From Escherichia phage EC101, in the sequence record OL310488.1: 64,000 nt of DNA; one strand, given 5' to 3'. The translations under genes were made by a program, and so were the position numbers. Below, one piece after another: positions 8,940 through 51,092 of the stretch. How positions within the stretch are numbered: position 1 is the first letter of the stretch; each line of letters starts with the position of its first letter. A model generated the notes under the pieces. That model saw only the letters and a list, made by a program, of their open reading frames with translations, did not search any database and was not told where the DNA came from.

Positions 8940-9269
8940 ATGAACAAGTTAGAAATTGTCAATGAACTTCGTCGCTGTGTAGAACCTACTCAAGAGGGTT
9001 GGGACATCTGGTACCATGGAGCTTATCTTGGAACTATCGTAAAGATTAAGACTGGTAAATACATGATTATTCGTGAAAGTAAAGATGCTCCAGTAGGTAT
9101 TCGCAATAATTTTATGGCAGCGATAAGTTCATTTACGGATGCAGCTTACGAAATTTACCTTGCTGATTATAAAGAATTTCAGGAATCTCAACCAGTTATT
9201 CGTTCAATTGGTGTTAACAAAGCTCAACAGAAAACTTTATGGCAACGTATTAAAGGATGGTTTAAATGA
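8940..9269 (+). CDS. hypothetical protein (109 aa)
   Basis: ORF in a tightly packed early operon; no recognisable domain. Confidence 0.6.
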
Positions 9270-9727
9270 ACCCATTTATTAATCGTTTAAAAATGCTGAA
9301 TGTTCCTTTATGTCGTGAAACTCCAGAAAGTCTTGTTGAAAAATTTAAAGCGCATGGTTATAAATGCACAGAAGAAGATATTCTAAAAGAAGTTCCTGAA
9401 ATCTGTTGGCAGACCGCATACTGGGATGAAAACCAAAAGTATCAACGACGAATTGTTTGTGCCGCCAACCGTTTTAAATTAAAAGATGGACGAACTCTTG
9501 TTATTCCAGGTGCTCGTCATTATTCTAAAGATATGGCAGAAGTTTTAGATGTAGTTAAACCCCAATTAGTTACTCAGCAAGTTTGTGATGATGACCAAGG
9601 GTTTATTGATCAGTATAGCAATTACTGGACACGTGAAGAAGCAATGATTATTGCAACTTACGCCGGACAAGTACGTATTGAACGCGGTGGTAGTGAAAAA
9701 GAACTTTACTCTGAGGACCTTTACTAA
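9266..9727 (+). CDS. hypothetical protein (153 aa)
   Basis: ATGA-overlapped start; no recognisable domain. Confidence 0.6.
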
Positions 9728-10023
9728 TGAATATTAAAAAGTTTCAAATTGATGGAATTAAGAATCAAATCCAGGCGTTGGAATATGCCAATAAAATGAT
9801 GTCAACTAATTGGGGAATTTATGCCAATGAACCGGCATTTCAGTTCTGTGATATGGAATTCACCAAAAAGCTCGTAGGAAAAGATTATGTATGTCCATTT
9901 AGTTCTCCAGTAAATGGAATGTTAAAACCTGCTTTACGCGATCTTTATATTGCGATGAACGAAGAAATGATAAAAGAACTAAAACGTCAACTGAAGGTGA
10001 TTCAATTTGGCCAGGGAAATTAA
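9727..10023 (+). CDS. hypothetical protein (98 aa)
   Basis: ORF with overlapping stop/start. Confidence 0.6.
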   Translation: MNIKKFQIDGIKNQIQALEYANKMMSTNWGIYANEPAFQFCDMEFTKKLVGKDYVCPFSSPVNGMLKPALRDLYIAMNEEMIKELKRQLKVIQFGQGN

Positions 10024-10231
10024 TTCAAAATCCGATTATTTTAATTCTCTCAATGATAAAGATAAAAATCTAATAAGACATTTTATTGTTGAGATGGGAT
10101 ATACTGACACACGTGATTTAAGAGAACATATATTTGAATGTGGTGTAGCTAAAAAGTTTTCATTCACATGCAAGTGTTTGAGAGAGGTAATTCAGCACTA
10201 TGAACAATTTAGTCGCAAAACACAATTTTAA
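10007..10231 (+). CDS. hypothetical protein; start uncertain
   Basis: track ORF begins at TTG; first ATG (10094) would give only 45 aa. Confidence 0.35.
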   Translation: MAREINSKSDYFNSLNDKDKNLIRHFIVEMGYTDTRDLREHIFECGVAKKFSFTCKCLREVIQHYEQFSRKTQF

Positions 10232-10308
10232 TAAAGCTTCTGTCCATAAGGATAAGAAGAAAGCGTTTAAAGAATCTAATCGCAAACAGAAACATAAGGG
10301 GAAGGTCT

Positions 10309-10587
10309 ATGATTATTGATTCTCAGTCCGTGGTTCAATACACAATCAAAATTGATATTCTAGAAAAGCTATATAAGTTTCTACCAAACCTATACCATTC
10401 AATTGTCAATGAATTAGTTGAAGAGTTACATCTTGAGAATAATGATTTCTTGATTGGAACTTATAAAGACCTCTCAAAAGCAGGATATTTTTACGTAATT
10501 CCAGCTCCAGGAAAAAGTATTGATGATGTATTAGAAACTATAATGATTTATGTCCATGATTACGAAATTGAAGATTATTTCGAATGA
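10309..10587 (+). CDS. arn: Arn, anti-restriction nuclease (inhibitor of McrBC)
   Basis: 92-aa acidic ORF, length and sequence consistent with T4 Arn. Confidence 0.85.
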   Translation: MIIDSQSVVQYTIKIDILEKLYKFLPNLYHSIVNELVEELHLENNDFLIGTYKDLSKAGYFYVIPAPGKSIDDVLETIMIYVHDYEIEDYFE

Positions 10588-10736
10588 GTCATAATCTTGA
10601 AAAGGTAATCGAGCATAATGTAGCTCAGGAACGCGAGTCGTTCAAGGAATTCGTAGAAAAAATTTTTGAAGAAAATAACACAGACCAGTTTACAAATCAA
10701 GCGTCTGATGATATTATAACAAAGTCAACTAATTGA
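10584..10736 (+). CDS. hypothetical small acidic protein (50 aa)
   Basis: ATGA overlap with arn stop; below ORF-track threshold. Confidence 0.4.
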   Translation: MSHNLEKVIEHNVAQERESFKEFVEKIFEENNTDQFTNQASDDIITKSTN

Positions 10737-10748
10737 GTGGTATAGTTA

Positions 10749-11021
10749 ATGAATAAAAACATTGATACAGTTCGTGAAATTATTACTGTTGCATCTATTT
10801 TGATTAAATTTTCCAGAGAAGATATTGTTGAGAATCGTGCTAATTTTATTGCATTTCTTAATGAGATTGGAGTAACGCATGAAGGTAGAAAGTTAAATCA
10901 GAATTCATTTCGTAAAATTGTTTCTGAATTAACTCAAGAAGATAAGAAAACCCTCATCGATGAATTCAACGAGGGTTTTGAGGGTGTATATCGATATCTA
11001 GAAATGTATACGAACAAATAA
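10749..11021 (+). CDS. asiA: AsiA anti-sigma70 factor
   Basis: 90-aa ORF; sequence MNKNIDTVREIITVASILIKFSRED... matches T4 AsiA as recalled. Confidence 0.9.
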   Translation: MNKNIDTVREIITVASILIKFSREDIVENRANFIAFLNEIGVTHEGRKLNQNSFRKIVSELTQEDKKTLIDEFNEGFEGVYRYLEMYTNK

Positions 11022-11678
11022 TTATTTAGCCCTTCCTAATATTCTGGCCGCCTGAGCACATATTGATTCAAGGCGGTCATTACTTATATGATCATTTCTA
11101 TACCAGTACATGGTTATCGTTCCAGCATAGATATTATCCAAATTAAAATATGGACAACTGTACATGTAGTTTATTTCGGGAGTAGGCTTTTTAGTTGGTA
11201 AAAAAGCAAATTTTGAGTCGGAATAATAATGACGTCCATTTAAATGAACTGTATATTCATCCATAGTTTTATCAACAGGATATCCTCCAAGTGATTTTTC
11301 ACTTATTGTTGAAGGTAATTTTCCTTCATATGCTATAATATCAACAAAATAGTTTAAGTTTTTAGGGCGGAAAGAATACACCGCACTAAAGTCTGCCTCA
11401 GATGATATGTGAACTATCTGGAGTTGTTCCAGGGCGACAGATTCAAAGCGTGCATTTCTTTCCTTTTCAATAATTTCACTGTATGTTTCATACTTTGATT
11501 GCTTATAGTACTCAAAGAAACTATCTCCCCTATACCAAACAATCGCCATCATAAACAAAAGAATTACGACAGCTACCCGGGAAGCAAGAACTTTCCCGGT
11601 AGCGTTATCTTTGAACAAGCGATCTAGAACACCAAATAGAATATCAGAGGGCGAAAATGATATTCTAGGTGCTGCCAT
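11022..11678 (-). CDS. t: holin T (lysis timing, lysis inhibition)
   Basis: 218-aa ORF, single N-terminal TM segment and large periplasmic domain; matches T4 T; AAGGAGGG SD. Confidence 0.95.
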   Translation of the reverse strand: MAAPRISFSPSDILFGVLDRLFKDNATGKVLASRVAVVILLFMMAIVWYRGDSFFEYYKQSKYETYSEIIEKERNARFESVALEQLQIVHISSEADFSAVYSFRPKNLNYFVDIIAYEGKLPSTISEKSLGGYPVDKTMDEYTVHLNGRHYYSDSKFAFLPTKKPTPEINYMYSCPYFNLDNIYAGTITMYWYRNDHISNDRLESICAQAARILGRAK

Positions 11679-11709
11679 AGACCCTCCTTTTAGGGGTATT
11701 TATTCAAAA

Positions 11710-12507
11710 TTATACTCTTGGACCATATATTACTCCAACATTTTGCCAAGTTGGAGCAGATCCTATGACAGCATAACCTGCTGCTCCTCCTGCACCAACC
11801 TTTAGAACTTTACCACCATCAGACCAGGCATTTTGTCCATTTCCTCCGGCATCGCCGCCCTGGCCAGAGTGAGCATTTCCGTATTGGTAACCACCTCCTG
11901 GGGCGACGTATGAAGCTGCGCCACCTGAGTAACCACCGCCACCACCTGGGCCAAATGGTCTTCCGCCGCCACCACCAATATCTTGCCAGTTTGCCCCTGA
12001 GTGAACACGGTAAGCAATGCCGCCACCACCGCCTCCGCCACCACAGATTACTCCACCATTGTTAATTCTTAATCGTCCACCAATGTCGTTTTGAATACAA
12101 TGCCCGCCTTGTTGTCCATTACCATCTCCACCGGAATGAGTCCATCCACCTTGTCCACCTCTACCCCACATATGAGCGCCAATAATATTTAACTGAACAT
12201 ATTCATTTGGTGTATCTCCGTACATGAAGAATAAAGGAACATCTTTAGAATATGATACTAAATCACCTGTAATATTAAACACTATAGGTGCATTACCTGC
12301 CTCAAAACATCTATCTCGGAACCATTGACCATTGAAGTTATGGTCTGCTCCAAGCGTGTGAATAATTTCTCGTGAGCGACCTGCAAATTGACTCATCCAG
12401 CAAGGAACACCCAATCTTAATTGACCAGCCGCTTGACTCATCCAGCGCTGACCCGTTTCATTTACGGATGAACTTCCAATCCAACCGGGAACACCAACTA
12501 CTGCCAT
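11710..12507 (-). CDS. 38: gp38 distal tail fibre adhesin, T2/T6 type with glycine-rich motifs
   Basis: 265 aa from the first ATG (GGAG SD 7 nt upstream); N-terminus [13 protein letters not shown]...; several poly-Gly runs (GGGGGGGG) separated by variable segments. Confidence 0.8.
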
Positions 12508-12539
12508 AATTATCTCCAAAGGGGCAAAGCCCCTTGTTG

Positions 12540-15524
12540 TTAGAATTTAAAATAATTACTAATTTTGCGAGCAATTTTAGTGAAGAAAGGCGTTTTTAAT
12601 TCTTTAATTTCTTCGCTCATTTCTTGGATAGCCTTAATTAAAAGAGCATTTACAGCGGAGTTAGAAATTGTCAGAACATCAGAACCATCAACTTCAACTT
12701 TAGACACAGCTTCCGGTAATTCCTTTTCAAGGTCCTGAGCAATAATACCAACTTCGCGTTTAATAACACTACGGTCTTTAATAGACTTAACCTTATCGTA
12801 AATATAAACTTTCAGTCGGCATACTTTTTCAAGTGCTCCGTTTTCTAGCTCTTTTTTATTAATCTTAAGACGACCATCGGAACGAATATACACATCGTTA
12901 AAGTTACCATTACCAGGAGAATAGAAAGTACCGTCGTAATGAAATTCAAATACCGCGTTAGGGTGTCCAGTCGCTGGCGATGCCTCTGCAGATCCAACAC
13001 GAATAATTGCTTGCCCCCAATTGTTAGGGACACGACGAATACCAAGATCGACGGCAGTTACAAACCCTTGATTGGTGATTACACTTTTTCCTTTAATAAT
13101 TGGATAATAACAATCCTGTGAAACATAACCATGATCGACGAATAATGGAGCTTCTACTCGCCATTGGTTGCCCCAATCACCCGGTTGTCTAGCAATCCAT
13201 CCAGAACCGTTAATGTGTACACGATCGCGGTTAACGTTAACCATTGCGATATTTTGTGGATTTAGCGAAATCTCACCATTGTTTGTGATATGTACTGCCG
13301 CCTGAGTAGCATAGCTATAAAATGCTAGCGAATTATCAGCACCACCCTTACCAATATACCAGTTACCACTCCCGTCTACGTCACCACGAATATGCAAAGC
13401 ATTACCAGCAGTTGTTGATAATACAATAGAATCACCCGGACGTTTAATAATCAATCTACCTTCGGATTCAACTTCACCAAAGAATTTAGTTTTAATTGCA
13501 CCAGTCGCTAAAGTACGTTCAGTGGAAAAATGAACGCCTTTGCTGTCTTCTAACTGAATAATGTTATCGCGCGCATTATTACTATCACCCCAATGGTTAA
13601 ATTTAAAATAATCTCGTGATCCTAAACGTCCGGCATCAAAAGTCATCAAGCCTTTTATATTAATATCACCACCAAAAAATGCGGTGAGAGAATCGCGTTT
13701 TAATTTTAAAACGTTAGCACCACTAGTACCACCCAAAGTAACATCACCAGTTCTTAATTCATAACGGAAAGGTCTATTTGTATTAAAGTTTCCATCTTGA
13801 TCATTTTCGTCGGTGGAAAGAATATAAAGACTCTCTCCATCATTACGGAAAATTGTACCAAATTTTCCGCCATACATACGGAATGCATTAGATGAGCGGA
13901 ATTTAACTTCTGTTTTAAATGTGGTAGTGTTATTAAGGTTAACAGTAGAGTTAAAATTGGTAGGAGCACCGAAGTTAACAGCACCATTAAAATCTTGTTG
14001 AGCTGTCCATGTGTGGCGACCATCTTCAAGAACAACACGGCGGACTGTGCAAGTTCTATTTCCAGAATTACCGAACACACGAACGACAAAATAACGGTAG
14101 TTTGTCTGGGATACAGTACCGCGCCAAACCTGAACAGTACGCCCTGTGCTAGTGTGTTCACTAGGACCAACGGAAAACATAACCAGGTTTCCGTCAATCG
14201 TCCCCCAATCCATATTTGCTGGCATGTTCTTTATTTTGTTCAAAGGAACGCTAAACATACTACCAGGAACAAAATCAAAGGTTTGCCAATCTAACTCCGC
14301 TAATTGAGCTTTAATACCACCCATACCCAAAGTAATTGGAAGAGAATAAGATGTATATACTTCGTTCCATGCACCCCACGCACCACCAGTATATGCACGC
14401 TCAAAAATACGATCGCGAGTAGTTGCACCCGTTCCGGCAGTAGTAAATTTTTGGAAAATAGCACCACCAGAAGCACGCTGTTTAACTTCCAGCAAACCAA
14501 CAATAACGGCTGGTAAACCTTCACCAGTAGGACAGTTAATAACGGCATCAGTGCCTAAAATGTTATATAACCCAGGAGTTTTAAAATCATTCAGATCTCC
14601 ATCATAGAAAGTCGCTGGTGTGCCATGACCAACCTGCTTCCATTCCTCCCACTTAGGTGCACTAGCATCCCATGCAGCAGCGAGACAACGAGTATAAACC
14701 ATACCCATGCGGGTAGTATAACGCTGCGTTCTTGTGTATAAACCACCTTCAAATATTTCTAAAAATCCTTGTGCGGCTGATCCTTCTTCTGGATAATGGC
14801 GATCAAATGATGCGATTGCGCTTGAACTGTTTCTCCATAAGCCACAATGTTCTAATTCTCCCAAGCTATCAAGGTCAATCGTTTGTGAAAGTGGACGAGT
14901 TGACGCTTGAACATTACGCCACACACCCCATGGACCATCGACGCCATTCCATTTAGCAGATAAGGAACGAATATAGACGTTACCAGATCTTACAGTATAA
15001 CGCTGAGTGCCAGCAAATTGGCCGGCCACAAATACTTCTAGTACACCTACGGCATTTTCTTCTGGGAATTTATTTGCTGGTTGCGCATTTGTTGAAGTAG
15101 ATTTCGACCAAACACCAAGATATTCTTCAATGGGCCCATACGTATCTAAATTAGCATCAGTAGGTAATTCGCCATTATTTTTTATAAATGTTGTGCTATT
15201 GACATTTATGTCAGATGGAGTTAAGGTAATGTCCTTTGACCCATCAAAAGATATACCATTAATTTTCCTAGGTGTTTGCAATTTAGTAGCTGTGCTAGAA
15301 TTTCCAATTAAAGTTCCAGTTATATTTTCTGTAACCTCTAAAGACCCATTTATAGTTCCTCCATATTTTAAACCTAATTCTATAACACTACCTGAGTCAT
15401 CTTTTGTGAAAATTGTTTTATCTTTTAAGTTTATAGCCAATTCACCTTCGGCTAATACTGAAGCAGCAGGACGTTGACCTGCAGTTTTGCTTCTTTTAAA
15501 TTGTATTTGTTTTAAAGTAGCCAT
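12540..15524 (-). CDS. 37: gp37 long tail fibre distal subunit
   Basis: 994-aa ORF immediately upstream of gp38 and downstream of gp36; fibrous repeat-rich sequence. Confidence 0.9.
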
Positions 15525-15532
15525 AAGTCCTC

Positions 15533-16183
15533 TTAATAATAGCCGAAATCTTGAACAGAATCCTTCATTACGATTTGGTCAAATCGTGGAACGTGTGAAG
15601 GTTGAGATGCAGGATTCTGTGAAAAAAGGTTTGGCGCAGTTAAATTTCCTGTCATAGTGTCTCCAGAGCGTAATACCCTAGAGTTTGCATTTGCTGTAAC
15701 AGTATTTATTGCTCCATCAACATAATCTTTACGAGTAACATCAGATGCTGCGGAAGGAGTAGATGTAACAGTTACAGATGGAGCCGTTACAGCTTTGGTA
15801 AATGTTGTCAAACCTTCTGGCGTAATCGTAATTTGTCCAGTAGTGATTTCACTACCTGCTGGTCTAAAACTAATACCGCCAGAAGAGCCACCAACTACAA
15901 GAGTATTACCAGTGCCGCCACCAGAACGAATTCGGATGGGGGTTTCATTATTACTTAATTGAAGATAACTATTTACCCCGTAATTAATAGTAATTGGACC
16001 GGTGTAAGTACCACCATTAGCTTTAGAAACGAAATCGTTATCAGCTGCCTGCGGTTTATTATATTCTGAATATATTTTAAATGATTTGTAGAGTACATCG
16101 TCACCGGCTGAATTCAATGGAAAATTTCCTTGATGCCAAATGACAGATCCACCCACAGTTGAACCTACTTTTAAATCAGCCAT
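15533..16183 (-). CDS. 36: gp36 long tail fibre distal connector (hinge) protein
   Basis: 216-aa ORF between genes 35 and 37; T4 gp36 is 221 aa. Confidence 0.85.
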
Positions 16184-16206
16184 TATATGCCCCTTTATTT
16201 TAATAT

Positions 16207-16214
16207 TATTTATA
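16207..16214 (-). promoter_or_regulatory. late promoter TATAAATA (minus strand) upstream of gene 36
   Basis: plus-strand TATTTATA about 25 nt upstream of the gene 36 start, after a UUCG hairpin. Confidence 0.6.
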
Positions 16215-16245
16215 AAGAAAAAGGGAACCCGAAGGCTCCCTCAGT

Positions 16246-17361
16246 TTAAACTTCTCTAAATTCCTGTCCAAACACTTTGCCAGTTTTAGAAGAGGCTTGT
16301 GTAGGAAGTACCATTATATCTGGAGGTGAAGCCGATTCACAGACATAATTAACGCGAATACCGTTGACGCCAAATTCGGCAGGTTTTGAAATGCCGCCAT
16401 TTCTTGATACTTCAGAAAAACTTAAATTTCTCATGCCGCCTTGACCTGCTTGAGCAGTTCTTTGTGCATATATCGTAAATCCTACTGCATTTTCAGGAAC
16501 AACTACATAATCTTCTTTTAATTCCCAAGACCCAGCTTGCCCAGTAAACTCAGCTTGGGTCGAGGAAATATATCCATTTGATGCATCATAAAAACGAATA
16601 GATATATTTGTAGTTCCAAGATCAAGTAAATCAGCATCAGCATATAGTTGTGCTTTAAGATAAAGAACATCACCAGGAATTAAATTGTAGTCAGAAAGTT
16701 TACTTATAGCAGCTGAAGTTGGCAATCGCGCAATTTCATTATTAGTTCCTCCAACCGCAGACATAAATTGCTCAACGCTTTCGTATGTTCTTTTAGGAAA
16801 TCCTGTAGCTCCGACGTCTTCTAAACTATCAAATACAACATCTAAAATAGTTTGATAATCATCTGTGCTTTTTCTATTACTTAGTTTAACATGCTCTAAT
16901 GCAATAGCTCTTTTAGAAGAAGTATAAAAAGCAGCATATGACACGTCAAATCTTGACAATACTGAATCTGATGGAAAAACTGAAGTTCCTGCTCCCCTTA
17001 ACCAAGATACCACTTCAGGAGGAAAATTAACCTTTCCGCTAGTTAATATAGCAACAAGTCTATTGTTTGACAAAGAATTCATGAAACTGACAAAAGCGGC
17101 AGATGTTGTATTGTTTGAAGCAGAAAAAGCATATGACTTACTATCAACTAATGCTCCCGTAGAAGGGTCAAAAACTCTTAAATGAAGACCTGCACTAAAT
17201 GTTTGATTTCCAACGGGATTATCCTGAAATTTAACATACGGTCCTGCGGTAGAAAGCGGGCAAGAACCCGCTATGCTTATTTTATATCTTACTGAATTGC
17301 TTTCCGATAAAAATGGCGTTTGGACATATCCTTGTCCAAACTCTGCCATAAATTTTTCCAT
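16246..17361 (-). CDS. 35: gp35 long tail fibre proximal connector (hinge) protein
   Basis: 371-aa ORF; T4 gp35 is 372 aa; synteny. Confidence 0.85.
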   Translation of the reverse strand: MEKFMAEFGQGYVQTPFLSESNSVRYKISIAGSCPLSTAGPYVKFQDNPVGNQTFSAGLHLRVFDPSTGALVDSKSYAFSASNNTTSAAFVSFMNSLSNNRLVAILTSGKVNFPPEVVSWLRGAGTSVFPSDSVLSRFDVSYAAFYTSSKRAIALEHVKLSNRKSTDDYQTILDVVFDSLEDVGATGFPKRTYESVEQFMSAVGGTNNEIARLPTSAAISKLSDYNLIPGDVLYLKAQLYADADLLDLGTTNISIRFYDASNGYISSTQAEFTGQAGSWELKEDYVVVPENAVGFTIYAQRTAQAGQGGMRNLSFSEVSRNGGISKPAEFGVNGIRVNYVCESASPPDIMVLPTQASSKTGKVFGQEFREV

Positions 17362-17369
17362 AATACCTC

Positions 17370-20300
17370 TTATTCAACCCATTCAAATTTAACAGTTTTA
17401 TTCACTGGGTCAGGAATAATGCGAACATTACCAATTCGCAAGAAATCGCGAATAGTAAGATTACCTATTATTCCATTATCAGATGGGATCGCTCCTATAT
17501 CTGAAGGTTGAGGAGGGTTACCTCCGTCAAATACCTGAACAAAACTTGACCAAGAGTTTTTGGTTTTCTGCCATGTACGTGTCCAGCGAGTGGTACGTGC
17601 TTCTGGGGTCGTTGGATAAGTAATCCAATCTTGGTAAAGTGAATCAAGTGTGTTACCAAACTGAGTCAATGTACCAGGAGATTTAACTTCTTCACCACGT
17701 TCTAAGTATGGAAGTCCAGTCACTTCATTAGTTTTTTCAACCATTTTAAAATAACCCGGGAACTGGTTATAAGTGGCTGAATCATTAATATCGATTGACC
17801 AGAATCCTACTGTATCAGATGTTGGCGCACGGGTATATAAATCAGAGGTTTTAGTACCCTGAGAACGAATTCTCGAGTTAACAGTCAAACCACCCGAACT
17901 TATAGTAGCACCTTTTGCAATGATTAAGCTTTCACCAATCGTTACTTGGCCAGATGCATTATTAATAGCTAAAGGACGCAATCCATTAAATCCGCCAGTT
18001 TGATCACCCGATGCAGTAAGCATAAAATTCGTTACTGACCCGTCATTGCGAACAATGAAACCATAATTTCCGCTAATAGCACGGAAAGCATTTGCGCTTC
18101 GAGAAATAATTTCACCAGTTGCAGTGACTGAATTACCAAATGTTGCTACACCATTTGCATTCAATGTTCCTGAAGCATTAACATTTATCGGTGTTACTGT
18201 ACCGTTGATATTAAATGTTATATTTCCAGCTTTATTACGCTGAGAATAAAAATGACTAGACGTTTCATCACTAACTTCAAATACGGTAGAACGTGTTGTG
18301 TCTGATTCCCCACTAAACTGATTTCCCCACACTCTGACTGTCATCGTTTGAGCTGGGTTTGTTCCAGTTTGAGATCCTTTCTCAAAAATCAGACGAGTTG
18401 CCGTTCCAGTATTAGAAATAGTTAATGTACTATTTGCTGAAACTGATCCACCGAATGTAGCAGTACTAGATGATACAAGAGGGGCACTCAGATTCGTTTG
18501 TTGGGTTAAGGTTAGTGAACCATTAACTGTTTGTGCAATGTCCCTACGAATGAACTGGAGCGAATCTAGACCATCTAATAAATTACTATCTACAGCTTTT
18601 GCTTTTAATGGCAAATAATTTGCTAATACGCGATTTAATTCATATGGTGATACTGCATAACCATTTTTCTCATATGATTCTAATGGCTGTGTTGAACCTA
18701 CCGTATCATTACCAACAAACGTTAATGAACCAGAAGAAGTTTTAACAAACCCTCTTATCAGAGTAGTTGCTGCCCAAGTTGGTTCACTCTGCACAATCCA
18801 TTTTAAATTTTTTGGAGATACAGCAGTATTTGCTGACGTTCCAGTCACAGTTTCAGACTGAGTTGCAACTTTAATAACACCTTCTTGCGATTCGGTAGAT
18901 TTAGTACCTAAAAGCTTTTTAGGAGTTATTAAAACATTATCTAATGTTCCTGCAGCAGCTTCAACTTGTGTAGCTACACGAAGTGTACCACGCTGTGTCT
19001 CATTTGCTTCAAGAATATTAAGGGTATAATGGTCCCAGAGAGTTCCTGATTCAACTAATCCAGATAGAGCAACAACAGAAGTACGATCAGTACTATTAAA
19101 TCTGGTTTTAATTTTTAATGGTGTAGAGATACGAGTATCGTCGACGCCTGCGTCGAATTCAACCTGTGTAGCAATTTCAGCTATACCACTTAAACTTTCA
19201 GTTGCTCTACGGTCATTTAAAGTTTTAGGAGTGACTGCACGAGTATAGTCAGTTCCTGTATTAACTTCACTTTGCGTAGCAATTTCAATTAAACCAATTC
19301 TTCCATCAGTTGATGTCTTTTTATGTAACGTTTCTGGCGTTACAACCGCATTTGCCCATCCTTCTTGGCTTTGTCCAGCAATTACTTCACTTTCAACTGC
19401 TAAAATTACTGCGCCTTGTTGCGTTGGAGTAGCTTTATACTGATCCAAAGCTTTAGGTGAAACAACTAAATTATTAGTGTTTTTATTATAAACATTCGTA
19501 CCATTTAATTCACGACTAGAAGCTGGAGTAGCTCCTGCGGTAGATACAAAAGTTACAATACCCGATAATGTTTCAGAACCTTGACGAGCTTGAAGCTTTT
19601 TAGGAGTGATGATTGTAGTATCATCGATACCTGTATTAGTTTCCTGCTGCGTAGCAATTTCAGCAACACCTCTGCGAGTTTCTGTAGCAGTTCTTTCATT
19701 CAGCTTTTTAGGAGTGATGATAAGGTCATCAGCAAAAGAGAATGTAGTGTTCTGATTTACTTGAGCAGTAGTTGCTATTCTTGCGATACCTCTGCGAGTT
19801 TCTGTAGCAGTACGATTAGCTAACGTTTCTGGAGTAATTGCCAATTCTTTTTGCGGAGAATTTTCTAAATCAGCATTTGCTTGAGCTTGCGTAGCTAAAG
19901 CAATTACGCCTAATCTTGCTCTAGTAGAAGCATTTAAAGAGTCTACTCTTTCTACAGTTGGAACGTTTTGCTGTACAACCCAGTATTTTCCATCAGAATC
20001 TTCTATATAAGCAAGTTGTAAAACTGGAACATAATTAGTTTCACCGTTAAAAACTAATTCTTGAACTGTTACCCATTCAGCTTCAGGCGGATATTCTGAA
20101 CGTTTTGGGAATTGCAGCAATTGAACTGAAGAAGCAATTTTATCTTCACCAGCAGCTTTGATTTTAACTGTTTGTCCTTTTCTCATGTAATTCATGGAAA
20201 TTTTAACAGTATCACCAACAGAAATATCAGTCGGAAGCTGAAGTTCAATTGTTTGGGTTGTTCCATTATTCGCGCCAAATACCATGACTTCTTCATTTGG

Positions 20301-21239
20301 ACGAATATTTGAATTAGTTGTTATAATGCGTAAACGTGCTTTACTATCCCCGTCAAACAATCTCCACAATTTCTCATTATCGTCAAACATCAAGAAACCG
20401 TCAATCGATGTACGGCCTTCAATGGAATGAGTTCCAACTTCTTGCACTGACGTTGTTTCATCATATGTCGTAACAATTGTATGATAAAGTGGATTCAGTT
20501 TATCTAAATCAACGAAATTAATAATATCGCCATGATTAGCAAATCTCGGAAGTTTAACATTAATTGGTGCAGCAGAAGTAAATCTACGTACGATAAAATC
20601 ATTAGATTGTGCTTGATACGCAGTCGATGGAGTAACAATCGCAGCTTCTCTGCTATAATCAGCAATATACATTTGCCACAAACGATTATTAAAAATGAAT
20701 ACCATCTGTGACTTTGGATGAGTCATTAAAACTGAACGTACCTGTTCACCTCTAAAATTGACAATACTCTGATTTGAAGAATTTATTTTAACCTGATTTA
20801 TGCCAGGTTTTCCACCGATATCTTGAATTATTACGGTTTCTCCATCAAGCGGAGAAGGTGGTAAAGTAAACTCAATGTCATTGCCAACTGATGTATCTAC
20901 TGAAATTGCTTCTCCGGATTTTAATTGATATGGTCCAGATGATACAGTTGTATATACGGCATCAGTACGTAATGCTTTCCAACGAATTCTATTAAAATTT
21001 CCAGCAGGTTTTGGAATATTATCCGTTGCTGCCCAAAAACGATTATTATAAATGATTACAAAATCTTTTAAATATCCACGAGTTGGATCATATTGCTGAA
21101 CTGTGTTTTCTTGAATTAAGTAATCAACGTTAACACCGTCAGTTCCTACGGTACGATCAGCTAAAGCTACGTTGATTATTTTATCGCCACCTGCGTCCAG
21201 ACCATCTTCTGCTCTGAACTTTCTTTTAATCTCGGCCAT
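17370..21239 (-). CDS. 34: gp34 long tail fibre proximal subunit
   Basis: 1289-aa ORF, identical in length to T4 gp34; internal repeat motifs. Confidence 0.95.
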   Translation of the reverse strand: MAEIKRKFRAEDGLDAGGDKIINVALADRTVGTDGVNVDYLIQENTVQQYDPTRGYLKDFVIIYNNRFWAATDNIPKPAGNFNRIRWKALRTDAVYTTVSSGPYQLKSGEAISVDTSVGNDIEFTLPPSPLDGETVIIQDIGGKPGINQVKINSSNQSIVNFRGEQVRSVLMTHPKSQMVFIFNNRLWQMYIADYSREAAIVTPSTAYQAQSNDFIVRRFTSAAPINVKLPRFANHGDIINFVDLDKLNPLYHTIVTTYDETTSVQEVGTHSIEGRTSIDGFLMFDDNEKLWRLFDGDSKARLRIITTNSNIRPNEEVMVFGANNGTTQTIELQLPTDISVGDTVKISMNYMRKGQTVKIKAAGEDKIASSVQLLQFPKRSEYPPEAEWVTVQELVFNGETNYVPVLQLAYIEDSDGKYWVVQQNVPTVERVDSLNASTRARLGVIALATQAQANADLENSPQKELAITPETLANRTATETRRGIARIATTAQVNQNTTFSFADDLIITPKKLNERTATETRRGVAEIATQQETNTGIDDTTIITPKKLQARQGSETLSGIVTFVSTAGATPASSRELNGTNVYNKNTNNLVVSPKALDQYKATPTQQGAVILAVESEVIAGQSQEGWANAVVTPETLHKKTSTDGRIGLIEIATQSEVNTGTDYTRAVTPKTLNDRRATESLSGIAEIATQVEFDAGVDDTRISTPLKIKTRFNSTDRTSVVALSGLVESGTLWDHYTLNILEANETQRGTLRVATQVEAAAGTLDNVLITPKKLLGTKSTESQEGVIKVATQSETVTGTSANTAVSPKNLKWIVQSEPTWAATTLIRGFVKTSSGSLTFVGNDTVGSTQPLESYEKNGYAVSPYELNRVLANYLPLKAKAVDSNLLDGLDSLQFIRRDIAQTVNGSLTLTQQTNLSAPLVSSSTATFGGSVSANSTLTISNTGTATRLIFEKGSQTGTNPAQTMTVRVWGNQFSGESDTTRSTVFEVSDETSSHFYSQRNKAGNITFNINGTVTPINVNASGTLNANGVATFGNSVTATGEIISRSANAFRAISGNYGFIVRNDGSVTNFMLTASGDQTGGFNGLRPLAINNASGQVTIGESLIIAKGATISSGGLTVNSRIRSQGTKTSDLYTRAPTSDTVGFWSIDINDSATYNQFPGYFKMVEKTNEVTGLPYLERGEEVKSPGTLTQFGNTLDSLYQDWITYPTTPEARTTRWTRTWQKTKNSWSSFVQVFDGGNPPQPSDIGAIPSDNGIIGNLTIRDFLRIGNVRIIPDPVNKTVKFEWVE

Positions 21240-46948: not shown

Positions 46949-46976
46949 AAATAGAATAAACACTAGAGAGGCTATG

Positions 46977-49031
46977 ATGGAACTTATTACAGAATTATTT
47001 GACGAAGATACTACTCTTCCGATTACAAACTTAAATCCAAAGAAGAAAATACCGCAAATTTTTTCAGTTCATGTTGATGATGCAATTGAACAACCAGGCT
47101 TTCGTTTATGTACCTATACATCTGGAGGTGATACTAATCGCGATTTAAAGATGGGCGATAAAATGATGCATATTGTTCCTTTTACATTAACTGCTAAAGG
47201 TTCAATTGCTAAATTAAAAGGTCTTGGTCCAAGCCCAATTAATTATATCAATTCAGTTTTTACTGTTGCGATGCAAACAATGCGTCAGTATAAAATTGAT
47301 GCCTGTATGCTTCGTATTCTTAAGTCTAAAACCGCTGGTCAAGCTCGACAAATTCAAGTTATTGCTGATAGACTTATCCGTAGTCGTTCAGGTGGCAGAT
47401 ACGTCCTTCTTAAGGAACTCTGGGATTACGATAAAAAGTATGCATATATTCTTATACATCGCAAAAATGTATCACTAGAAGACATTCCGGGAGTTCCGGA
47501 AATTAGTACTGAGCTCTTTACTAAAGTTGAATCGAAGGTCGGTGATGTTTATATCAATAAAGATACTGGAGCTCAAGTAACTAAAAATGAGGCAATTGCA
47601 GCATCTATTGCGCAAGAAAATGATAAACGTTCTGACCAAGCTGTAATCGTTAAAGTTAAAATTTCCCGTAGAGCAATTGCGCAAAGTCAATCATTGGAAT
47701 CTTCTAGATTTGAAACGCCGATGTTTCAAAAATTTGAGGCTTCAGCAGCAGAATTAAATAAACCTGCTGACGCTCCTTTAATTTCTGACGCTAATGAATT
47801 AACTGTTATTTCTACTTCAGGATTTGCATTAGAGAATGCTCTTAGTAGTGTTACAGCTGGAATGGCATTCAGAGAAGCTTCTATAATTCCTGAAGATAAA
47901 GAATCTGATGTTAATGCAGAAATAAAAAATAAAGCTTTAGAAAGATTACGAAAAGAATCTATTACTTCAATAAAAACTTTAGAAACTATTGCTTCTATAG
48001 TTGATGATACTTTAGAAAAATATAAAGGTGCTTGGTTAGAAAGAAACATTAACAAGCATTCGCATTTAAATCAAGATGCTGCGAATGAGTTAGTACAAAA
48101 TTCTTGGAATGCAATAAAAACAAAGATTATTCGAAGAGAATTGCGTGGATATGCTCTTACCGCTGGATGGTCACTACATCCTATAGTCGAAAATAAAGAT
48201 TCATCTAAATACACACCGGCACAAAAACGCGGAATTCGTGAATACGTAAGTTCAGGATATGTAGACATAAATAACGCTCTTTTGGGATTATATAATCCAG
48301 ATGAGCGTACAAGTATTTTGACAGCATCTGATATAGAAAAAGCTATTGATAATTTAGATTCTGCCTTTAAAAATGGTGAACGATTACCAAAAGGTATTAC
48401 TTTGTATCGTTCACAACGAATGTTACCTTCAATATATGAAGCACTGGTAAAAAATCGAGTTTTTTATTTTAGAAACTTTGTGTCAACATCATTATATCCA
48501 AATATTTTTGGTACCTGGATGACTGATTCATCTGTGGGTGTTTTACCAGACGAAAAGCGTTTAAGTGTTTCTATTGATAAAACTGATGAAGGACTAGTAA
48601 ATTCTAGCGATAATTTAGTTGGAATTGGATGGGTTATTACTGGGGCTGATAAAGTCAATGTTGTTTTACCAGGTGGAAGTTTAGCACCTTCAAATGAAAT
48701 GGAAGTCATTTTGCCACGTGGATTAATGGTCAAAGTTAATAAAATAACCGATGCATCTTACAATGATGGAACAGTTAAAACTAACAACAAGCTTATTCAA
48801 GCTGAAGTTATGACCACAGAAGAACTCACCGAATCGGTAATTTATGACGGTGACCGTCTAATGGAAACCGGCGAAGTAGTTGCAATGACAGGTGATATTG
48901 AAATAGAAGACAGAGTTGACTTTGCATCATTTGTTTCATCAAACGTTAAACAGAAAGTAGAATCATCTCTTGGAATTATTGCGTCTTGTATAGATATTGC
49001 AAACATGCCTTACAAGTTCGTTCAAGGATAA
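46977..49031 (+). CDS. alt: Alt ADP-ribosyltransferase (virion-packaged; modifies host RNA polymerase alpha subunit)
   Basis: 684 aa from the ATG with GAGAGG SD; sequence matches T4 Alt as recalled; C-terminal R-S-E ADP-ribosyltransferase motifs (LYRSQ, FVSTSL, EVILPRG). Confidence 0.9.
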   Translation: MELITELFDEDTTLPITNLNPKKKIPQIFSVHVDDAIEQPGFRLCTYTSGGDTNRDLKMGDKMMHIVPFTLTAKGSIAKLKGLGPSPINYINSVFTVAMQTMRQYKIDACMLRILKSKTAGQARQIQVIADRLIRSRSGGRYVLLKELWDYDKKYAYILIHRKNVSLEDIPGVPEISTELFTKVESKVGDVYINKDTGAQVTKNEAIAASIAQENDKRSDQAVIVKVKISRRAIAQSQSLESSRFETPMFQKFEASAAELNKPADAPLISDANELTVISTSGFALENALSSVTAGMAFREASIIPEDKESDVNAEIKNKALERLRKESITSIKTLETIASIVDDTLEKYKGAWLERNINKHSHLNQDAANELVQNSWNAIKTKIIRRELRGYALTAGWSLHPIVENKDSSKYTPAQKRGIREYVSSGYVDINNALLGLYNPDERTSILTASDIEKAIDNLDSAFKNGERLPKGITLYRSQRMLPSIYEALVKNRVFYFRNFVSTSLYPNIFGTWMTDSSVGVLPDEKRLSVSIDKTDEGLVNSSDNLVGIGWVITGADKVNVVLPGGSLAPSNEMEVILPRGLMVKVNKITDASYNDGTVKTNNKLIQAEVMTTEELTESVIYDGDRLMETGEVVAMTGDIEIEDRVDFASFVSSNVKQKVESSLGIIASCIDIANMPYKFVQG

Positions 49032-49034
49032 ATC

Positions 49035-51092
49035 ATGGAACTTATTACAGAATTATTTGACGGCGCTTCGGCGCCGGTTGTTAACTTAAATCCTAAGCAT
49101 AAAATACCACAAATTTTTGCTATTCAAGCCGGCGAAGAAAGCGTGCTTCCTGGATTTAGATTTTGTACATATACCTCTGGTGGTGATACGAATAAAAACG
49201 TTAAGCCAGGCGATAAAATGATGCATATCGTAATGATAGGTGTTAATGAGAAACTATCATTAGTTAAGCTTAAAAACTTGGGTGGAAATCCAATTGGTGT
49301 CATTAATGCCGTTTTTGATACTGCTCTTCAAACAATGAAACAGTATAAAATCGACGCATGCCTATTCCGCGTACTAAAAAGTAAAACAAATGGCGCAGCT
49401 CGTCAAATGCAAGTTATTGCTGACCGTTTAGTACGTACTAAAGGAGCAGGTCGATATGTTCTTTTAAAGGAAATCTGGGACTATGATAAGAAATATGCAT
49501 ATATTATGGTTTACCGTAAAAATGCCAATTTAGAAGACATTCCAGGTGTACCTCCTATTTCAACTGAGTTATTCACAAAAGTTGAATCAAAGGTTGGTGA
49601 TGTTTATGTAGATGTTAAAACAGGTAATGCTGTTCCTAAAGCTGTTGCTGTTGCTGCTTCTATTGCTTTAGAAAATGATAAGCGCACGGACCAAGCTGTT
49701 ATTCAGAAAACTAAAATTAGTCGTCGATTAGCAGCACAAGCTCAATATTCTACTGTTGATGCTTCACTTCAGGGTGATAGCTTCGCTGCTAAGAAATATC
49801 AAGAGTTTGAATCTAAAGTTCCGGTATATAAAGCAGAAGGTCCGATGAACTCTGGCGTTATCCAGATTGGTTCAAACTTCAGCAAAGGAGCTATCGGTGG
49901 TATGAGAAGTGCTTCTCGTTTTAAATCTAACGATTATGAACTAGAAAGCTTCCGAAATCATATTGCATTGGCCCATGCACGTTTACGTGATCCATCTATC
50001 AAGTTGCAGAGCGATATAACATATCAAGGTTCTCAAGAATATTTAAAGAATAAAGAATTCTTTGATTATAAAACTGATAAAATTTTAAGCGATCTTGCTG
50101 ACATTAATATTTCTAATAGCTTTGATGTTATTAAGAAAATTATTAATGATTTAGTTAAAGGTTCTAAAACCACACCAGATGAAAAGACAGCTATTATTCA
50201 ATTTGTCATGAATGGCATTTATAAATTGATTAATGAATCTGCTGCCCAGGCATATGAATACGCAAGCACCGAAGTAGCTCCAAAAGGACTGACTCAGGCT
50301 GAATCTGATGTAATTGAAGATTATTGTGCAGATTCATATGTTGAAATGAACTCGTTCCTTTTGGGTAAACCAGATTCTACCCGTGAAGAATATATGGAAC
50401 GAGCTATTAAGCACATCGAGACGTTGGATTCTGCATTCGCTAAAGGTTCAGTTCTTCCTCCAGGAACTACGCTTTATCGTGGACAAGAAGTTACCTTTAA
50501 AACTTTGCGTCATAACATTGAAAACAAAATGTTCTATTTCAAGAACTTCGTATCCACATCGCTTAAACCAAATATATTCGGTGAGCATGGTAAAAACTAT
50601 ATGGCTCTAGATGATTCTGGCGCAGTATTTTCTGGCGAAGGAGAAGGTTCCGTTGATGCAGAAGATTTGATGCATATGGGTAGTCATTCTACATATGCTA
50701 ATGAAGATGCTGAAACTAGCGTGGGTATGGTAATTAAAGGAGCTGAGCGAATCAAAGTTATCGTTCCAGGTCATTTATCAGGATTTCCATCAGAAGCTGA
50801 AGTTATTCTACCACGTGGAATTTTACTGAAGATTAATAAAGTAAGTACTTACTTTATGAAAGAAACTGCTTATAACAAGTATCTAATCGAAGGTACAATC
50901 GTTCCTCCTTCTGAACAATTAGAAGAATCAGTATATGATGGAGACCATCTAATGGAAACTGGTGAAGTTCGTCCAATGGCTGGATTTAATCAATTCCTTG
51001 TAGAAGAATCAAAAGAAGAGGAAAATGAAGTTTCTCAAATCTTAGCTTCTTTGGTTAACATCAACGGAATGTCTAAAAAGTTCAAAATGTAG
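49035..51092 (+). CDS. Alt-like ADP-ribosyltransferase paralog (second copy, divergent central region)
   Basis: 685-aa ORF 3 nt after alt; N-terminal about 210 aa and C-terminal ART core (LYRGQ, FVSTSL, EVILPRG) are clearly homologous to Alt; the middle is diverged. Confidence 0.85.
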   Translation: MELITELFDGASAPVVNLNPKHKIPQIFAIQAGEESVLPGFRFCTYTSGGDTNKNVKPGDKMMHIVMIGVNEKLSLVKLKNLGGNPIGVINAVFDTALQTMKQYKIDACLFRVLKSKTNGAARQMQVIADRLVRTKGAGRYVLLKEIWDYDKKYAYIMVYRKNANLEDIPGVPPISTELFTKVESKVGDVYVDVKTGNAVPKAVAVAASIALENDKRTDQAVIQKTKISRRLAAQAQYSTVDASLQGDSFAAKKYQEFESKVPVYKAEGPMNSGVIQIGSNFSKGAIGGMRSASRFKSNDYELESFRNHIALAHARLRDPSIKLQSDITYQGSQEYLKNKEFFDYKTDKILSDLADINISNSFDVIKKIINDLVKGSKTTPDEKTAIIQFVMNGIYKLINESAAQAYEYASTEVAPKGLTQAESDVIEDYCADSYVEMNSFLLGKPDSTREEYMERAIKHIETLDSAFAKGSVLPPGTTLYRGQEVTFKTLRHNIENKMFYFKNFVSTSLKPNIFGEHGKNYMALDDSGAVFSGEGEGSVDAEDLMHMGSHSTYANEDAETSVGMVIKGAERIKVIVPGHLSGFPSEAEVILPRGILLKINKVSTYFMKETAYNKYLIEGTIVPPSEQLEESVYDGDHLMETGEVRPMAGFNQFLVEESKEEENEVSQILASLVNINGMSKKFKM

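Follow-up and report, generated by a model that had tools for sequence, protein, structure and literature searches.

Structurally described relatives of the protein treated here are the gp38 tip adhesins of phages S16 (PDB 6f45) and PP01 (PDB 9v85), the latter entry being the PP01 gp38 receptor-binding domain fused to sfGFP (PMC12892980). In both proteins Gly-rich motifs build the core of a polyglycine-II (PGII) sandwich. For PP01, loop A comprises W119-I124 and loop E is described as the main specificity determinant (PP01 crystal structure paper). Conserved Trp 'prongs' of gp38 insert into the gp37 tip (PMC7917993). The same name is carried in T4 by a protein of 183 aa (NP_049864; the length given in an earlier, sequence-only reading of this DNA was correct), which is an assembly factor outside the virion. 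The T4 GenBank record itself calls the 'gp38' of the T2 subfamily unrelated to T4 gp38.

The window, i.e. the whole stretch of DNA analysed, comprises 64,000 nucleotides of Escherichia phage EC101 (OL310488.1). Its g38 gene (11710..12507, minus strand) runs from an ATG at 12507 to a stop codon ending at 11710. The product of 265 aa was assigned as the long-tail-fibre tip adhesin (receptor-recognising protein gp38) from the open reading frame together with Pfam, PHROG and PDB matches. The sequence-only reading had pointed to a Gly-rich frame of this length after gp37, which the coordinates and the Gly runs confirm; the strand, which it had not given, is minus. In the open reading frame listing an alternative TTG start is found at 12519, resulting in 269 aa. 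This start was dropped and the ATG was used, because the TTG overlaps a GGAG Shine-Dalgarno sequence located 6 nt before the ATG and because Gp38_N already matches from the first residue of the product read from the ATG. The protein carries one run of eight glycines (G8, residues 156-163), two runs of five (G5, residues 178-182 and 188-192) and 12 shorter runs (11 GG and one GGG). Glycine makes up 40% of residues 115-245 compared to 11% of residues 1-114.

The long-tail-fibre operon is complete in the window and is read from the minus strand in the order g34-g35-g36-g37-g38-t. The positions of g34 (17370-21239), g35 (16246-17361) and g36 (15533-16183), all on the minus strand, rest in part on the annotation of Shigella phage vB_SsoM_JK08 (Tequatrovirus), which is 99.9% identical at the DNA level over window positions 9000-20000 and has the same gene order. 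The JK08 record annotates its g38 homologue (CAD2273060) as 'tail fiber adhesin'. Gene g37 (12540..15524, minus strand) encodes the T6-type distal long-tail-fibre subunit, for which the earlier figure of 994 aa holds. Directly downstream of g38 lies t, encoding the holin (11022..11678, minus strand; PF11031, E=1.9e-117). The order g37-g38-t is also found in T4, T2, T6, AV119, RB32 and Ox2.

A late-promoter-like TATAAATA motif shortly precedes each of g34 and g36 on the minus strand, the one before g36 lying at 16207..16214. The motif is absent from the gap between g37 and g38, and a promoter belonging to g38 itself was not found there. Because no such motif lies directly before g38, the one before g36 likely serves g36, g37 and g38, which on this weak evidence are likely co-transcribed. 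The motif occurs 11 times in the window against 9 +/- 3 expected by chance, which is not above chance, and it is the intergenic placement alone that is suggestive. The same gap holds a GC-rich hairpin, GGGGC-uuu-GCCCC (GGGGCuuuGCCCC; 12513-12529, minus strand), which follows the stop codon of g37 and immediately precedes the GGAG sequence of g38. AV119 retains a similar hairpin (GGGGCttcGGCCC) despite divergent flanks. The folding energy of the GGGGCuuuGCCCC hairpin is indistinguishable from that of shuffled sequences (z=-1.18).

Elsewhere in the window, two tandem open reading frames of 685 aa each (46974-49031 and 49035-51092, plus strand) are 41% identical to each other, and both match the ADP-ribosyltransferase exoenzyme family PF03496 (E=5.6e-35 and 4.4e-20). 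They resemble Alt-like paralogues arranged in tandem, with DNA ligase (gene 30) on one side and the baseplate genes on the other. A search with ARAGORN over the 64-kb window (1-64000) gave no tRNA genes, and the T-even tRNA cluster therefore lies outside of it.

Residues 47-265 of gp38 match the full Pfam GP38 profile (PF05268, profile positions 1-218) with E=1.3e-66 and 225 bits against a cut-off of 25, a value that puts the Gly-run architecture far beyond chance. Residues 1-42 match Gp38_N (PF21721) with E=3.2e-19 and 69.1 bits, the cut-off again being 25. Additionally, the full-length protein matches PHROG 2056 ('tail fiber protein; host specificity') with E=9.8e-111, and among the known structures it matches 9v85 (E=6.8e-73) and 6f45_D (E=7.5e-52, residues 5-262). 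Identity is 76% to T6 gp38 and 49% to T2 gp38. Judged by these matches, the gene product is an ordinary and already annotated gp38 tail-fibre tip adhesin of the T2/T6 family, and the family membership proposed by the sequence-only reading stands.

As a T4-type gp38, the protein would instead be a non-structural chaperone of gp37 assembly, absent from the virion, which would leave receptor binding to the tip of gp37. What the two proteins have in common is the gene name and the place after g37 and before t. The alignment which the earlier reading had named as the one that could overturn its assignment was carried out, and BLASTP against T4 gp38 gave no similarity, the best hit having E=0.8 over 20 aa. 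T4 gp38 matches neither of the two Pfam families, the gp37 of the window lacks the C-terminal region of T4 gp37 and ends in a predicted Peptidase_S74 intramolecular chaperone (IMC) instead, and the homology of the window protein to crystallised tip adhesins is strong. We rejected the T4-type identity on the BLASTP result and on the lack of common Pfam families, and give it practically no credence. A chaperone-like extra role of an adhesin is possible, as T2-type gp38 is reported to aid gp37 assembly before staying attached (PMC7917993).

The anatomy of the adhesin was drawn from an alignment of gp38 with its counterparts from AV119, RB32, Ox2, LHE83, T6 and T2 (seven sequences), using conservation to place the boundaries, which are approximate. 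All segments lie on the minus strand. The docking (attachment) domain, which is of the T6/Ox2 allele, covers residues 1-45 (12373..12507) and corresponds to PF21721; all seven adhesins share its W9, W22 and W37. The N-terminal part of the beta-helix domain, named after the PP01 and S16 structures, follows at residues 46-114 (12166..12372). The remaining C-terminal region has the plan described by Trojet 2011, in which five Gly-rich motifs (GRM) separate four hypervariable segments (HVS). On conservation, GRM1 was placed at residues 115-121 (12145-12165), GRM2, which includes the G8 run, at 134-163 (12019..12108), GRM3 at 178-192 (11932-11976), GRM4 at 215-224 (11836-11865), and GRM5 with the C-terminus at 240-265 (11713-11790).

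Between these motifs, HVS1 (residues 122-133, 12109..12144) corresponds to loop A and is 100% identical to AV119 and RB32, 83% to Ox2 and 17% to T6. HVS2 (residues 164-177, 11977..12018) corresponds to loop B and contains R167; here the identity is 100% to AV119 and LHE83, 86% to RB32 and Ox2, and 7% to both T6 and T2. HVS3 (residues 193-214, 11866..11931) holds loops C and D, with 100% identity to AV119, 82-86% to the other OmpA phages and 27% to T6 and T2. HVS4 (residues 225-239, 11791..11835) corresponds to loop E and is 93-100% identical to the OmpA phages, 12% to T6 and 20% to T2.

The Gly columns are invariant across the seven aligned adhesins in spite of their different receptors. Identity to T6 is 93-96% in GRM2 and GRM5 and 50-71% in the short GRM1, GRM3 and GRM4, in every case above that of any HVS, while the HVS segments fall to 7-33% identity to T6 and T2. 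In the alignment with 9v85, loops A to E of PP01 map to approximately W122-D128, Y166-D176, G190-Y193, Y207-A212 and W228-V234 of gp38, and by this alignment they fall inside HVS1 to HVS4. The variable segments between the Gly motifs had been suggested as likely receptor-contact loops, and their match to the loops of the PP01 crystal structure agrees with this. The S16 and PP01 proteins are homologous to the window gp38 over nearly its whole length and serve as structural template for a beta-helix, a PGII sandwich and distal loops A-E, but loop sequences and lengths differ, with loop C of the window protein being 2 aa shorter in the 9v85 alignment. From homology to 6f45_D and 9v85 we infer that gp38 has the PGII-sandwich fold. 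A single-sequence AlphaFold2 model, computed without an MSA, had a pLDDT of 31, too low to bear on the fold.

Identical gp38 proteins are encoded by JK08, Yersinia phage PYPS2T and Escherichia phages a15 and ECML-123-2, none of which differs from the window protein at any residue. At least five GenBank records hold the identical protein; nine phage records match at 99% or above and 32 more at 95-99%. Although the family is that of T2 and T6, as the earlier reading had it, the closest characterised adhesins are neither of these two but those of Ox2, RB32, AV119 and LHE83. RB32 gp38 (ABI95068) is 95% identical over its full length, the 14 differences being 13 substitutions and one single-residue gap, and Ox2 gp38 (CAA29158, 266 aa) is 88% identical over its full length, with 33 differences (32 substitutions and one single-residue gap). 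The docking domains of these two are 98-100% identical to that of the window gp38. Their differences in HVS2 and HVS3 (V168P, N173K, V201D/E, A202G and Q208N/D) may tune which OmpA variants are recognised. T6 gp38, which uses Tsx, and T2 gp38, which uses FadL/OmpF, share the family and the modular plan, and T6 gp38 is in addition equally long, with an identical docking domain and a gp37 partner of 92% identity; the HVSs of both T6 and T2 are nevertheless essentially unrelated to those of the window protein, and a different receptor is therefore expected.

AV119 gp38 (WPK36299) is related in another manner. Over 954 bp (window 11410-12363) there are zero nucleotide mismatches to AV119, in a block that takes in g38 from codon 49 to codon 265, continues through the intergenic gap and ends ~270 bp into t. 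Residues 49-265, and with them all GRMs and HVSs, are thus encoded by the same nucleotides throughout. Downstream of the block the identity to AV119 is ~98%, and upstream of 12364 the mismatches are dense. The junction, at ~12364-12385, coincides with the boundary between the Gp38_N and GP38 domains, i.e. the 5' edge of the beta-helix part. The docking domain upstream of it is 100% identical to those of T6 and Ox2 but 51% identical to that of AV119, which is 2 aa shorter. The gp37 tip behaves likewise: it is 88% identical to Ox2 in the C-terminal 250 aa and ~37% identical to AV119, with a 96-aa indel, and AV119 gp37 comprises 1104 aa with a different tip.

From this pattern, 11410-12363 is read as a recombination patch with its upstream edge at the gp38 domain boundary, and gp38 as a natural mosaic, in which a docking domain and gp37 partner of T6/Ox2 type are combined with an OmpA head of the Ox2/RB32/AV119 'type 1'. 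Docking-domain and gp37-tip alleles vary together, and the mosaic agrees with the known rule by which a docking domain has to suit its gp37 tip whereas the head is exchangeable. Tentatively, and with somewhat more doubt than confidence, we suggest a very recent natural 'head swap' of an OmpA-binding head between backbones of T6/Ox2 type and AV119 type. By the same tentative suggestion the head might be an unusually polyvalent, portable broad-host-range module, because the same head is found in phages from E. coli, Shigella and Yersinia and, in near-identical form, from Salmonella.

The receptor was approached by comparing the specificity region to that of adhesins with assigned receptors. Considering the HVSs only, identity to the window gp38 is 100% for AV119 (OmpA), 92% for LHE83 (OmpA), 90% for RB32 (OmpA and LPS) and 87% for Ox2 (OmpA), against 17% for T6 (Tsx) and 22% for T2 (FadL). 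A tblastn search with the specificity region only places AV119 on top with 100%, followed by RB32 (95.6%), LHE83 (92.6%) and Ox2 (83.8%). Since the phages with high HVS identity are all OmpA-dependent and the T6 and T2 segments are so distant, OmpA is most probably the receptor, and the LPS core may be needed to some extent; this prediction follows from identity to the AV119 receptor-binding domain and differs from the OmpC of S16 and PP01. The sequence-only reading was right in regarding the locus as the host-range determinant, but the mutants it listed for adsorption assays (OmpC/OmpF/FadL/Tsx/LPS) omit OmpA.

Several experimental results on the related phages bear on this prediction. Plating of AV119 is lost on MG1655 delta-ompA by more than 3 logs, its 'type 1' adhesin tolerates all eight OmpA variants tested, and a salt bridge between R165 and OmpA loops has been predicted in silico (Lutz 2025). 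The type 1 residues R165, R181, D217 and R262 of AV119 correspond to R167, R183, D219 and R264 here, the offset of +2 resulting from the longer N-terminus; the contacts of these residues with OmpA in Lutz 2025 are in silico predictions. RB32 needs OmpA and is LPS-sensitive, and a 400-bp HVS segment carries its specificity over to RB5 by recombination (Trojet 2011). For LHE83 an ompA frameshift leads to resistance, adsorption lowered by ompA knockout is restored by complementation, and anti-gp38 serum blocks adsorption. In T6-like phages a swap of gp38 turns the use of Tsx into the use of OmpA (2026 preprint). Identical or near-identical adhesins occur in phages from E. coli, Shigella, Yersinia pseudotuberculosis and Salmonella, a spread that fits a conserved receptor such as OmpA (cf. 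Trojet 2011). For the present phage and for JK08, PYps2T, a15 and ECML-123-2, which have the identical protein, no receptor experiments were found in the papers searched, the PYps2T paper reporting none, and JK08 is absent from a 255-phage receptor screen. The stock named 'Ox2' in this screen (bioRxiv 10.64898/2026.04.02.716166, supplement) is a 51-kb Drexlerviridae siphovirus assigned to BtuB; it differs from the T-even Ox2 of GenBank X05675, and its data are for this reason not usable for Ox2 gp38.

An adhesin that uses the Tsx of T6, or the FadL/OmpF of T2, would be in accordance with the 92% identity of gp37 to that of T6 and with the 93-100% identity to T6 in the docking domain, GRM2 and GRM5. 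Furthermore, phages binding OmpA and those binding Tsx are evolutionarily close, and PST uses both (Trojet 2011, Lutz 2025). Receptor class does, however, track the HVS alleles, and it is in the HVSs that T6 and T2 are distant; on a panel that included tsx, fadL and ompF mutants, AV119 with its identical head scored as dependent on OmpA and on none of those three (Lutz 2025). We consider a receptor shared with T6 or T2 very improbable. Against a direct transfer of the OmpA assignment from AV119 counts the fact that in AV119 the head is carried by another docking domain and another gp37, and the N-terminus of gp38 might also influence OmpA recognition (Trojet 2011).

Dependence on OmpA is not always exclusive, as the additional dependence of RB32 on LPS and the behaviour of LHE83 demonstrate: knockout of ompA in BL21 (delta-ompA) cuts LHE83 adsorption by ~50%, and about half of it remains. 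Such results could also mean that the primary receptor is the LPS core or another outer-membrane protein (OMP) resembling OmpC, with OmpA as accessory, and that the receptor might differ between E. coli and Yersinia. Host-range mutants of Ox2 are reported to move from OmpA to OmpC and on to LPS via single substitutions in gp38 (Drexler et al.). RB32 does respond to LPS composition, but effects of LPS may be indirect, via OMP assembly (Trojet 2011), and the plating loss of AV119 on the ompA deletion was obtained with an identical receptor-binding domain. A merely accessory role of OmpA is in our view unlikely, if less so than a receptor shared with T6 or T2, and OmpA is kept as the predicted receptor.

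The fibre partner, gp37, shows 92% identity to its T6 counterpart along the full 994 aa. It is strongly T4 gp37-like in the N-terminal 64 aa only and has no homology to the C-terminus of T4 gp37. A predicted IMC covers residues 882-994 (12540..12881, minus strand), of which residues 882-940 match Peptidase_S74, and the region aligns to the IMC of S16 gp37 in 6f45_A. DVYIR at residues 877-881 leaves 113 aa behind it and is part of a DVYIR^SDGRLKI motif (877-888), which has been discussed for the fPS phages (PMC7917993). By homology we infer that the IMC is autocleaved after R881, exposing the face on which gp38 docks.

The mechanism proposed for the complete tip transfers, by homology, what the literature describes for S16, PP01 and the T2 family. 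gp37 would trimerise with the aid of its own C-terminal IMC (882-994), which would then cleave itself after DVYIR881. One gp38 would dock on the exposed tip of the trimer via residues 1-45, using W9, W22 and W37. The five GRMs would pack into a polyglycine-II sandwich displaying the four HVSs, as five structural loops, at the distal end, and these loops would bind the extracellular loops of an outer-membrane beta-barrel protein. As a whole, we hold it to be highly probable that gp38 acts as a tip adhesin on matured gp37, with the HVS loops binding and OmpA most probably as the receptor.

The feature itself is already known: it is a textbook gp38 adhesin, annotated as such, and holds no new biology. 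What is added here is only the presence of an Ox2/RB32/AV119 OmpA-binding allele on a T6-type fibre, together with a clean mosaic junction. For work with this phage, or with therapeutic phages of the JK08 kind, adsorption through the long tail fibre is most probably OmpA-dependent. If so, resistance would be expected via loss of ompA or variation in its loops, and the other phages of a cocktail should be directed at different receptors. With its mosaic junction, the gene is a clean case, made by nature, of the modular exchange that is already exploited in the engineering of gp38.
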